Sequence record: OL964745.1
Source of the DNA: Escherichia phage T4
Direction: 5' to 3' (one strand)
DNA length: 64,000 nt
This document shows, one piece after another, positions 29,315 through 30,666 of the stretch. Below the pieces are notes generated by a model. That model was not told where the DNA came from. It ran no database searches and was given only the letters and a program-made list of their open reading frames with translations. The position numbers were made by a program, and so were the translations under genes. Every line of letters begins with the position of its first letter. Position 1 is the stretch's first letter.

Positions 29315-29389
29315 TGGTATCCCGCCCTGGGATCGAACCAGGACCGCAAACTTAGAAGGATCGTATGCTATCCATTACACCAGCGGGAC
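29315..29389 (-). tRNA. tRNA-Arg (anticodon TCT), CCA encoded
   Basis: Cloverleaf folded by hand: acceptor GTCCCGC, anticodon loop CTTCTAA, T-arm GGTTCGATCC, 3' ACCA. Confidence 0.8.
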
Positions 29390-29394
29390 GTAAT

Positions 29395-30054
29395 TTAAAA
29401 TTTCATTTTTCGACCTTTAAACCATCCTTCTGGAATTGGGTCAGTTTTCTTAATACGTTTAGAAACTTTTTCATCTAATGAATGAATCCACATCATACCG
29501 AATTGGGAATTCTTTTCACCTTTCTGGTGATTATTTTTGGCGTGAGATTCTTTCATTTTATTAATAGTTTCAGGAGTATGATGCTTATTTAGATCTGCTA
29601 TTATTTAAAAATTTTTCCCTGTATTCAGGAGTTGACCACAAACGTTTAAATACATTTGAACCAATTTTACGATATTTTTCTTGAAGTAAAATATCATTTT
29701 CAAAACGTGACTTAAACGATAGCTCCTTTTAAGCTAGCATCTTTCTTCTGGTTTAGCATTCCAGGAATATTTACATGATCCCATCCACCTTCACCGCCAA
29801 GTTTTAAATTATACACATCTGGTCTATTTAAAAACTCTTCTGTGACAATATTTTTCTCGGCTTCAAGCATAGATTCTTTATCGTCAAAATACTCTAATAT
29901 TTCTTTAGAAAAATTTTCTATACCATATTTATCTTGGGCTCTTTTTAATAATTTACCAGAACCCATATCCATCATCTAAATTTTCGGTAGAATGCACACC
30001 AATATAAATTTTATTATTAATTTTATTTGTTATTTTATAAGTGTAATAGAACAT
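29395..30054 (-). pseudogene. segB: GIY-YIG homing endonuclease (segB-like) split over four frames
   Basis: MFYYTYKITNKINNKIYIGVHSTENLDDGY-stop; MGSGKLLKRAQDKYGIENF (ORF 29712-29975); IGSNVFKRLWSTPEYREKF; NUMOD-like HTPETINKMKESHAK...PIPEGWFKGRKMKF; every junction a +1 shift. Confidence 0.55.
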
Positions 30055-30095
30055 AAATATCTCCTATTTCTAAGAGTATTTATGTTCTCAAAATA

Positions 30096-30169
30096 TGACC
30101 CAGACCAGATTTGAACTGGTAACCTTTCCCTTATGAGGGGACTGCTGCTAACCATTGAGCTACAGGGCC
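30096..30169 (-). tRNA. tRNA-Ile (anticodon CAT), no encoded CCA, non-canonical D-arm
   Basis: Acceptor GGCCCTG, anticodon loop CTCATAA, T-arm CCAGTTCAAATCTGG; D region GCTCAATGGTTAGCAGCAG lacks a clean 4-bp stem. Confidence 0.65.
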
Positions 30170-30170
30170 T

Positions 30171-30246
30171 TGGTGCTGATTGACGGAATCGAACCGCCGA
30201 CATCCTCATTACAAGTGAGGTGCTCTACCTACTGAGCTAAATCAGC
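30171..30246 (-). tRNA. tRNA-Thr (anticodon TGT), CCA encoded
   Basis: Canonical cloverleaf GCTGATT / GCTC-GAGC / CCTCA-CTTGTAA-TGAGG / GGCGGTTCGATTCCGTC / ACCA; 1 nt from tRNA-Ile. Confidence 0.9.
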
Positions 30247-30253
30247 AAAATTA

Positions 30254-30340
30254 CGGAGGCGATAGGATTTGAACCTATGAGTCGCCGGAGCGACTGCCGG
30301 TTTTCAAGACCGGTGCATTAAACCACTCTGCCACGCCTCC
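30254..30340 (-). tRNA. tRNA-Ser (anticodon TGA), class II, no encoded CCA
   Basis: Acceptor GGAGGCG, anticodon arm CCGGT-CTTGAAA-ACCGG, long variable arm, T-arm GGTTCAAATCC. Confidence 0.85.
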
Positions 30341-30342
30341 AG

Positions 30343-30416
30343 TCTCCATACAAGGATTTGAACCTTGGACCTCCTGATCCCAAATCAGGCGCTCTACCAA
30401 ACTGAGCTACACGGAG
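30343..30416 (-). tRNA. tRNA-Pro (anticodon TGG), no encoded CCA
   Basis: Acceptor CTCCGTG, anticodon arm CCTGA-TTTGGGA-TCAGG, T-arm CAAGGTTCAAATCCTTG; 2 nt from tRNA-Ser. Confidence 0.85.
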
Positions 30417-30426
30417 TAAATTAAAT

Positions 30427-30500
30427 TGGAGCGGATAATGAGAATCGAACTCACATCATCAGATTGGAAGTCTGAGGTAATACCATTATACGATATCCGC
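30427..30500 (-). tRNA. tRNA-Gly (anticodon TCC), CCA encoded
   Basis: Acceptor GCGGATA, anticodon arm TCAGA-CTTCCAA-TCTGA, T-arm GTGAGTTCGATTCTCAT, 3' TCCA. Confidence 0.8.
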
Positions 30501-30505
30501 AAATT

Positions 30506-30592
30506 TGGTGCGAGAAGTGGGACTCGAACCCACAAGGAAATCATTCCGCAGCATTTTAAGTGCTGTGCCTTTACCAATTTGACCATTCTCGC
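30506..30592 (-). tRNA. tRNA-Leu (anticodon TAA), class II, CCA encoded
   Basis: Acceptor GCGAGAA, anticodon arm CAGCA-CTTAAAA-TGCTG, long variable arm, T-arm GTGGGTTCGAGTCCCAC, ACCA. Confidence 0.85.
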
Positions 30593-30593
30593 G

Positions 30594-30666
30594 CTGGGAA
30601 TAAAGGACTCGAACCTTTGCATCTAGCAGTCAAAGTGCTATGCCTTACCAACTTGGCTAATTCCCA
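30594..30666 (-). tRNA. tRNA-Gln (anticodon TTG), no encoded CCA
   Basis: Acceptor TGGGAAT, anticodon arm TAGCA-CTTTGAC-TGCTA, T-arm AAAGGTTCGAGTCCTTT; 1 nt from tRNA-Leu. Confidence 0.85.

Follow-up and report, generated by a model that had tools for sequence, protein, structure and literature searches.

Bacteriophage T4 carries a cluster of eight tRNA genes that has been sequenced since 1980–85, and the dimeric precursors made from it helped to define the functions of RNase P and of the CCA-adding enzyme. Polycistronic tRNA operons of Escherichia coli (e.g. metT-leuW-glnUW-metU-glnVX) likewise place several tRNAs on one transcript, which is processed by RNase P and host 3' nucleases. They differ from the phage cluster in their spacers (9–47 nt vs 1–10 nt in T4) and in their 3' ends, as the E. 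coli tRNA genes examined all encode CCA, unlike four of those of T4. All tRNA genes of E. coli are known to encode CCA, which makes CCA-less genes a peculiarity of the phage in this host. The T-even relatives T2, T6, PST, ime09 and KIT03 share the Gln-Leu-Gly core of the cluster at the same genomic position and, unlike T4, carry additional Tyr, Asn or His genes. Here we describe the feature at positions 29315–30666 of a 64,000-nt stretch of phage DNA (record OL964745.1; "the window" denotes this whole stretch). It is almost certainly the bacteriophage T4 tRNA operon with its RNA subclusters I and II, and this confidence covers the best explanation as a whole. The eight-tRNA cluster is a long-known textbook feature and is not new, and there is no evidence that contradicts the identification.

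In the whole window ARAGORN detects eight tRNA genes and no more. They are all encoded by the minus strand and together span 29315–30666. The same eight genes are matched by the Rfam tRNA covariance model RF00005 with 48.8–75.4 bits (E <= 1.3e-8), the curated gathering score of this model being 29 bits. A chance origin of these eight matches is impossible. The anticodons given by ARAGORN are TTG (Gln), TAA (Leu), TCC (Gly), TGG (Pro), TGA (Ser), TGT (Thr), CAT ('Met') and TCT (Arg). In the direction of transcription the genes are arranged as Gln-Leu-Gly-Pro-Ser-Thr-Ile, followed by a gap of about 700 nt and then by Arg. An identical gene order is found in NC_000866, MT984581 and X03016, the latter being the original Broida-Abelson entry titled "RNA subcluster I and II". 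Identity to T4 records is 99.4–99.9% across the 1.8-kb region, and subcluster I (581 nt) is 100% identical to deposited T4 genomes. The tRNA genes show zero differences from the T4 reference, and the same holds for the tRNA genes, rnaC and rnaD in comparison with MT984581. Relative to T4 (X03016; NC_000866.4, 70908–72530) the window has the same genes, order, sequence, spacers, CCA pattern, early promoter PE1 and terminator, and the differences are confined to the flanks (segB, trna.2, trna.3 and the -10 region of PM2).

The original prediction, made from the sequence alone, had proposed eight tRNAs at this place, the above order for subcluster I and a match to the classical T4 organisation. 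ARAGORN and RF00005 both bear out the number and the order; the T4 annotation agrees in all eight genes and in their arrangement. The further statement that subcluster II is Arg holds in that tRNA-Arg is present, but it is incomplete, since the stable RNAs rnaD and rnaC directly follow. The predicted unit as a whole was therefore partial rather than wrong: rnaD, rnaC, segB, the promoters and the terminator had been omitted (Table 1).

Gene ends were read off the sequence together with the Rfam boundaries. Gln and Leu are separated by a single nucleotide (discriminator G at 30594, C at 30593, Leu start at 30592), Pro and Ser by two (discriminator A at 30343, CT at 30342–30341, Ser start at 30340), and Thr and Ile again by one (Thr ending in ...ACCA at 30171, A at 30170, Ile start at 30169). 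These values reproduce the predicted spacers of 1–2 nt. Leu, Gly, Thr and Arg encode CCA directly after the discriminator, whereas Gln (G-C, then Leu), Pro (A-CT, then Ser), Ser (G-TAATTTT) and Ile (A-TATTTT) do not, exactly the distribution that had been proposed. In Gln and Pro a C stands directly after the discriminator, so that the template supplies one CCA base out of three. The ends reported by ARAGORN are off by 1 nt from those of Rfam at Gln, Pro and Ser because ARAGORN absorbs spacer bases; this is no genuine conflict.

Table 1. Positions of the tRNA genes, of the other parts of the transcription unit and of deletions in the window
Feature	Positions	Strand	Basis and remarks
tRNA-Gln (UUG)	30594..30666	-	no encoded CCA; ARAGORN, Rfam, sequence, T4 annotation
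tRNA-Leu (UAA), class II, long variable arm	30506..30592	-	CCA encoded; ARAGORN, Rfam, sequence, annotation
tRNA-Gly (UCC)	30427..30500	-	CCA encoded; ARAGORN, Rfam, sequence, annotation
tRNA-Pro (UGG)	30343..30416	-	no encoded CCA; ARAGORN, Rfam, sequence, annotation
tRNA-Ser (UGA), class II	30254..30340	-	no encoded CCA, discriminator G then TAA; ARAGORN, Rfam, sequence, annotation
tRNA-Thr (UGU)	30171..30246	-	CCA encoded; ARAGORN, Rfam, sequence, annotation
tRNA-Ile, CAT gene anticodon, tRNA-Ile2 type	30096..30169	-	no encoded CCA; ARAGORN, Rfam, sequence, annotation
tRNA-Arg (UCU), first gene of subcluster II	29315..29389	-	CCA encoded; ARAGORN, Rfam, sequence, annotation
rnaD, species 2 stable RNA	29195..29313	-	starts 1 nt after Arg-CCA, ends ...GCACCA; annotation, mapping, sequence
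rnaC, species 1 stable RNA	29051..29189	-	after rnaD; annotation, fold, motif match
segB, GIY-YIG homing endonuclease gene, pseudogene in the window	29395..30054	-	between Ile and Arg
Early promoter PE1 (TTTACA, 17 nt, TACTAT)	31671..31700	-	X03016 annotation mapped; consensus scan matches the same site
Potential late-promoter box PL2	31002..31007	-	X03016 annotation mapped to the window
Middle promoter PM2	30733..30759	-	X03016 annotation mapped, sequences compared
Inter-subcluster stem-loop, potential terminator	30048..30088	-	X03016 annotation mapped
Intrinsic terminator closing the RNA operon	28977..29000	-	10-bp stem with 7 G-C pairs, then TTTTT; annotation mapped
Large deletions (nrdG-nrdD, nrdC.3, nrdC.11-mobD.1, vs.3-vs.8)	junctions 8057, 12154/12155, 17827/17828, 22996/22997		
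Micro-deletions, examples (nrdC.1-nrdC.4; nudE; 5.1/segC/5.3)	11685-13176; 25234-25569; 38323-38798		

According to a 2024 review of RNase P, six of the eight T4 tRNAs are found in dimeric precursors (PMC11143913). In the Pro-Ser precursor neither half contains CCA and the 3' end is UAA; for efficient cleavage by RNase P, CCA is favoured over UAA at the Ser 3' end (PMC11143913). The review gives a Pro-Ser spacer of 3 nt vs the 2 nt found here, perhaps because it includes the discriminator. The predicted dimeric precursors, requiring both 3' trimming and CCA addition, agree with these published experiments, and their support comes from the literature, as does the Pro-Ser pathway. The genes, their ends, the spacers and the CCA status come from the present analysis. 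A literature search on the names of the three dimers returned nothing relevant.

Taken together with the ends found here, the following pathway is proposed. Minus-strand polycistronic RNAs would start at PE1 (early, upstream of trna.4) and at PM2 (middle, just upstream of Gln) and would be matured by host enzymes, giving the monomers Gly and Arg and the three dimers Gln-Leu, Pro-Ser and Thr-Ile. RNase P would cut every 5' end. The CCA-less Gln, Pro, Ser and Ile would need 3' trimming, which would take UAA off Ser, U off Pro and the trailer off Ile, and the host CCA-adding enzyme would then finish these four ends. Which enzyme acts on each individual end is what we infer from this scheme.

The results of the tRNA scanner agree with the original prediction. 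The sole DISAGREEMENT is nominal, the seventh gene of the cluster being labelled 'Met' by ARAGORN. Taken literally, the label would make the CAT gene an elongator methionine tRNA and not an isoleucine tRNA. The orthologue is indeed annotated as tRNA-Met in many deposited relatives, and the identity of the phage tRNA to E. coli metT (50/75) is in effect no lower than that to ileX (51/74). Overall identity was therefore rejected as a discriminator between Ile2 and Met. However, ARAGORN names a tRNA by its anticodon alone, and the tRNA-Met labels of the relatives have the same origin. The label is uninformative because CAT is common to tRNA-Met and to unmodified tRNA-Ile2. A comparison of the acceptor stems is more telling: the phage tRNA has C4:G69 and C5:G68, the same pairs as ileX, whereas metT has U4:A69 and A5:U68. 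It is these two pairs, 4:69 and 5:68, on which the lysidinylation identity of E. coli TilS relies (PMC11947777). Moreover, curated T4 records name the gene tRNA-Ile, and its matches in the E. coli genome are annotated as tRNA-Ile only. In addition, biochemical work of the 1970s is reported to have characterised T4 tRNA-Ile as accepting isoleucine. A methionine tRNA is thus highly improbable and, judged by its sequence features, the assignment as tRNA-Ile of the Ile2 type stands.

The nearest host counterpart is E. coli tRNA-Ile2 (ileX/ileY), a lysidine-dependent reader of AUA that shares the CAT anticodon and both identity pairs with the T4 tRNA. The resemblance is incomplete: only 51 of 74 positions are identical, the acceptor stem of the T4 tRNA contains a G2:U71 pair and a U6-U67 mismatch, and its CCA is not encoded. 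We infer a lysidine at position 34, by which host TilS would turn the CAT tRNA into an AUA-reading isoleucine tRNA. The gene is therefore an annotation trap: an AUA-reading tRNA-Ile is named 'Met' by anticodon-only tools and in many GenBank records.

The 3' ends were compared among T4, PST, T2, ime09 and KIT03, and variants were counted in deposited phages (annotated phage collection) with short queries centred on the respective junction. The CCA-less Gln/Leu junction is identical in all five phages, and the CCA-less Pro/Ser junction is identical in the four of them that carry Pro. From this conservation, both junctions look ancestral. The Ser and Ile ends behave differently. Ser encodes CCA (as CCAG) in T2, ime09 and KIT03 but not in PST, and the CCAG form occurs in 341 records. 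The T4 form (G-TAATTTT) is limited to 16 records, all of T4 or near-clones, and a second CCA-less form (G-TT, PST/RB32 type) was counted in 22. For Ile, the CCA-less end of T4 is present in 15 exact T4-type records and one near-identical record. The same allele with CCA is found in 25 other records, T6 and PST among them; the Ile CCA is encoded in PST, T2, ime09 and KIT03 (4/4) as well as in T6. Going by the deposited records, the CCA-less Ser end (TAA form) and the CCA-less Ile end of T4 are T4-specific. A scan of IMG/VR with a 36-mer of tRNA-Ser returned four loci only.

Around the conserved core the tRNA cluster is highly plastic among the relatives. In PST (KF208315, 1030–1202 of locus L010) the homology to T4 stops precisely behind the Ile discriminator, and the next gene is a tRNA-Tyr (GTA). 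The Ser/Thr spacer of PST is 2 nt, so that Pro-Ser-Thr-Ile could be one tightly packed precursor in this phage. In KIT03 (NC_054923, 2449–3099 of locus L018) the place of tRNA-Pro, between Gly and Ser, is taken by a segB-like gene, and the cluster additionally contains Tyr, Asn and His genes. T2 (L016) and ime09 (L017) are without segB and carry Tyr and Asn. In ime09, ARAGORN detects a tRNA-Tyr (start 2791) that is absent from the annotation of the record. T6 has lost the body of Pro and the entire Ser gene. Its annotated 'tRNA-Thr' (AP018814, 1474–1548 of locus L020) is a chimera of the 5' acceptor strand of Pro (CTCCGTG) and the body of Thr, joined at the shared D-arm sequence TAGCTCAGT. The acceptor stem of this chimera cannot pair and it is not called by ARAGORN. 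Hence, it is probably a pseudo-tRNA.

The gap between Ile and Arg is occupied by segB. The locus is that of T4 and the gene is in the expected place, but its protein cannot be made in the window strain, as three 2-nt deletions (near 29968, 29720 and 29593) leave fragments of the open reading frame (ORF) of 33, 87, 32 and 53 aa. Consequently, this strain should have lost the SegB-driven homing and segmental amplification reported in 2026. The recognition sequence of SegB is the T-arm motif GGTTCRANTCC, and cleavage is preferentially 3' of CCAR (PMC2330249). A secondary SegB target has been documented at the Ser site of T2L, where the cut is made just after CCAG (PMC2330249). Seven exact copies of the recognition motif are present in the window vs 0.13 expected, and 6/7 lie within RNA genes. 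The seventh core motif (GGTTCAAATCC) is located outside the cluster at 55709–55719 on the minus strand, by its coordinates inside gene 17 (large terminase). By its sequence, this copy is a possible off-cluster SegB site.

The change at the Ser end of T4 is located where SegB prefers to cut. Where a phage has its segB at the same place as T4 (between Ile/Tyr and Arg), Ser has been affected by one of three different changes: CCAG to TAA in T4, a deletion in PST/RB32 and the loss of Pro-Ser in T6. The loss of CCA from Ser and Ile in T4 may thus be a footprint of SegB, left by cutting and repair or by selection against self-cutting, instead of a design of RNA processing. We regard this as a tentative and rather unlikely idea. 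A strict link between segB and CCA-less Ser was rejected, since about 113 records have the T4 segB arrangement and just 38 have a CCA-less Ser. Pu-Krd-SF6 retains CCAG despite a homing endonuclease at that place, and KIT03 retains it with its segB-like gene elsewhere. General self-protection from SegB by loss of CCA is a weak explanation, too, because Leu and Thr retain the exact T-arm motif together with CCAA.

The remaining parts of the unit were placed by mapping the curated X03016 annotation, on which all promoter calls rest. A sigma-70 promoter scan was rejected as stand-alone evidence, as it gave 12 matches vs 13.0 expected. PE1 lies upstream of trna.4-trna.3-trna.2 and of tRNA subcluster I. 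PM2 is situated about 70 nt upstream of Gln; its -35 (MotA-box) region is TATGCTT at 30753–30759, and its -10 hexamer (30733–30738) is changed from TATTAT to TATTAA in the window by a 3-nt deletion in a TTA repeat. The PL2 box of T4, TATAAATA, is changed to GATAAATA by a 2-nt deletion that also frameshifts trna.2. Both PL2 and PM2 are annotated as 'potential/putative' sites. The stem-loop between the subclusters spans the ribosome-binding site and start codon of segB, and regulation of segB by an RNA hairpin has been reported (PMC2988022).

Downstream of Arg, the transcript of this tRNA also contains the stable RNAs rnaD and rnaC. In rnaC, a T arm of perfect tRNA type (GGTTCGAATCC) is combined with an acceptor-like terminal stem that is interrupted by two U-U mismatches, and the fold is very stable (-50.2 kcal/mol; z = -4.6). 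Neither rnaC nor rnaD matched RF00005 at E <= 1, and no Rfam family was matched by either of them.

The best match of the window is MZ375356, "Mutant T4 clone T4_583L". T4_583L appears by name in the publication on CiPGr, in which the T4 genome was reduced by iterative CRISPR/Cas9 editing (PMC9825161). The window is thus a laboratory-made, genome-reduced T4 and not the wild type. Some micro-deletions are private to the window and others to T4_583L, so that the two are sibling clones. Compared with NC_000866, the window shows large deletions of 2,046, 905, 2,046 and 2,054 bp with junctions lacking microhomology (Table 1); the near-equal sizes of about 2,046 bp are odd. In addition, there are about 40 micro-deletions at 7635–38798, 32 of them of exactly 2 nt. 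Only A/T is lost in 35/40, typically as X-Y-X to X. They affect dispensable genes or intergenic DNA only, with at most eight per gene, and none occurs in about 30 kb of structural genes. Near the cluster (27600–32400), six deletions are found relative to modern T4 (MT984581): one each in trna.3 and trna.2 (2 nt each), one in the -10 region of PM2 and three in segB. These flank deletions are marks of the CiPGr lineage (PMC9825161); the paper leaves the micro-deletions unmentioned.

An origin of the micro-deletions as scars at Cas9 cut sites was rejected: 10/41 lie at an NGG cut site vs 8.2 ± 2.5 for random positions, six are at least 20 nt from any cut site, and there is no fixed offset to GG/CC within ±160 nt. 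NC_000866.4 differs from the window also by an extra base in rnaD (29273), an N (28489) and a CG/GC swap at 29003–29005, immediately upstream of the stem of the terminator. These are errors of the old reference and not mutations, because MT984581 agrees with the window.

In such an engineered strain the cluster could be a poorly expressed passenger, with damaged middle and late boxes, that was kept because it was never targeted. The TATTAT to TATTAA change in PM2 and the loss of the PL2 box TATAAATA would fit this idea, as would the dispensability of the tRNA region and a CiPGr design that aimed at protein-coding genes and avoided likely regulatory elements (PMC9825161). However, PE1 and the terminator are intact, the damaged boxes are the two with 'potential/putative' status, and hundreds of transfers have left all ten RNA genes unaltered in the window strain as well as in T4_583L. 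We therefore consider a mere passenger quite improbable.

With respect to the role of the operon, all eight tRNAs read A-ending codons (CAA, UUA, GGA, CCA, UCA, ACA, AUA and AGA). Measured against a 49-kb sample of E. coli, window ORFs of at least 150 aa are enriched 1.7–4.5 times in the eight cognate codons but just 1.1–2.4 times in NNA codons without a phage tRNA. This skew, a result of the present analysis, fits the classical view of the cluster as a decoding supplement: these eight codons would be frequent in the AT-rich genes of T4 and served poorly by the host, whose decoding the cluster would accordingly supplement. Three points weigh against this view or limit it. The tRNA region is dispensable for laboratory growth of the phage, so that its benefit is conditional (PMC2330249). 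Codon supplementation is the prevailing but not the sole view, since phage tRNAs can counter tRNA-cleaving defences (PMC13096335). Finally, the PM2 and PL2 boxes carry small deletions, and tRNA expression of this strain may differ from that of wild-type T4.

The second point leads to the alternative that phage tRNAs are chiefly anti-defence elements: where tRNA-targeting immunity cleaves or depletes host tRNAs, they would replace these or serve as decoys. In T6, the tRNA-Tyr next to segB neutralises Septu, which cleaves tRNA-Tyr, and T6 without its tRNA-rich region is Septu-sensitive (PMC13096335, 2026). Furthermore, segB genes are found near tRNA genes in many phages. T4, on the other hand, lacks tRNA-Tyr and could not escape Septu (PMC13096335), and no nuclease is known that targets its eight specificities as a set. 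The enrichment of the eight cognate codons in T4 ORFs fits a supply of decoding capacity. The two roles are not mutually exclusive; for T4's own set, anti-defence is a live yet secondary alternative and is unlikely to be the chief function, for which we prefer the supplementation of host decoding.

The discovery value of the locus is small, although the tRNA ends and the CCA status proved to be recoverable by eye from the sequence. Small additions to the known picture concern the identity of the CAT tRNA as Ile and not Met, the parts of the unit that had been left out, the origin of the strain and the T4-specific CCA-less Ser and Ile ends, which lie at preferred cutting places of SegB. In this genome-reduced T4 lineage the RNA genes are untouched and every neighbouring dispensable protein gene is frameshifted. 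If the SegB footprint were true, host trimming and CCA addition would have had to compensate for a SegB-driven removal of CCA. An apparently recent, lineage-specific loss of CCA from Ser and Ile beside a CCAR-cutting endonuclease would then tie the needs of tRNA processing to the activity of a selfish element.

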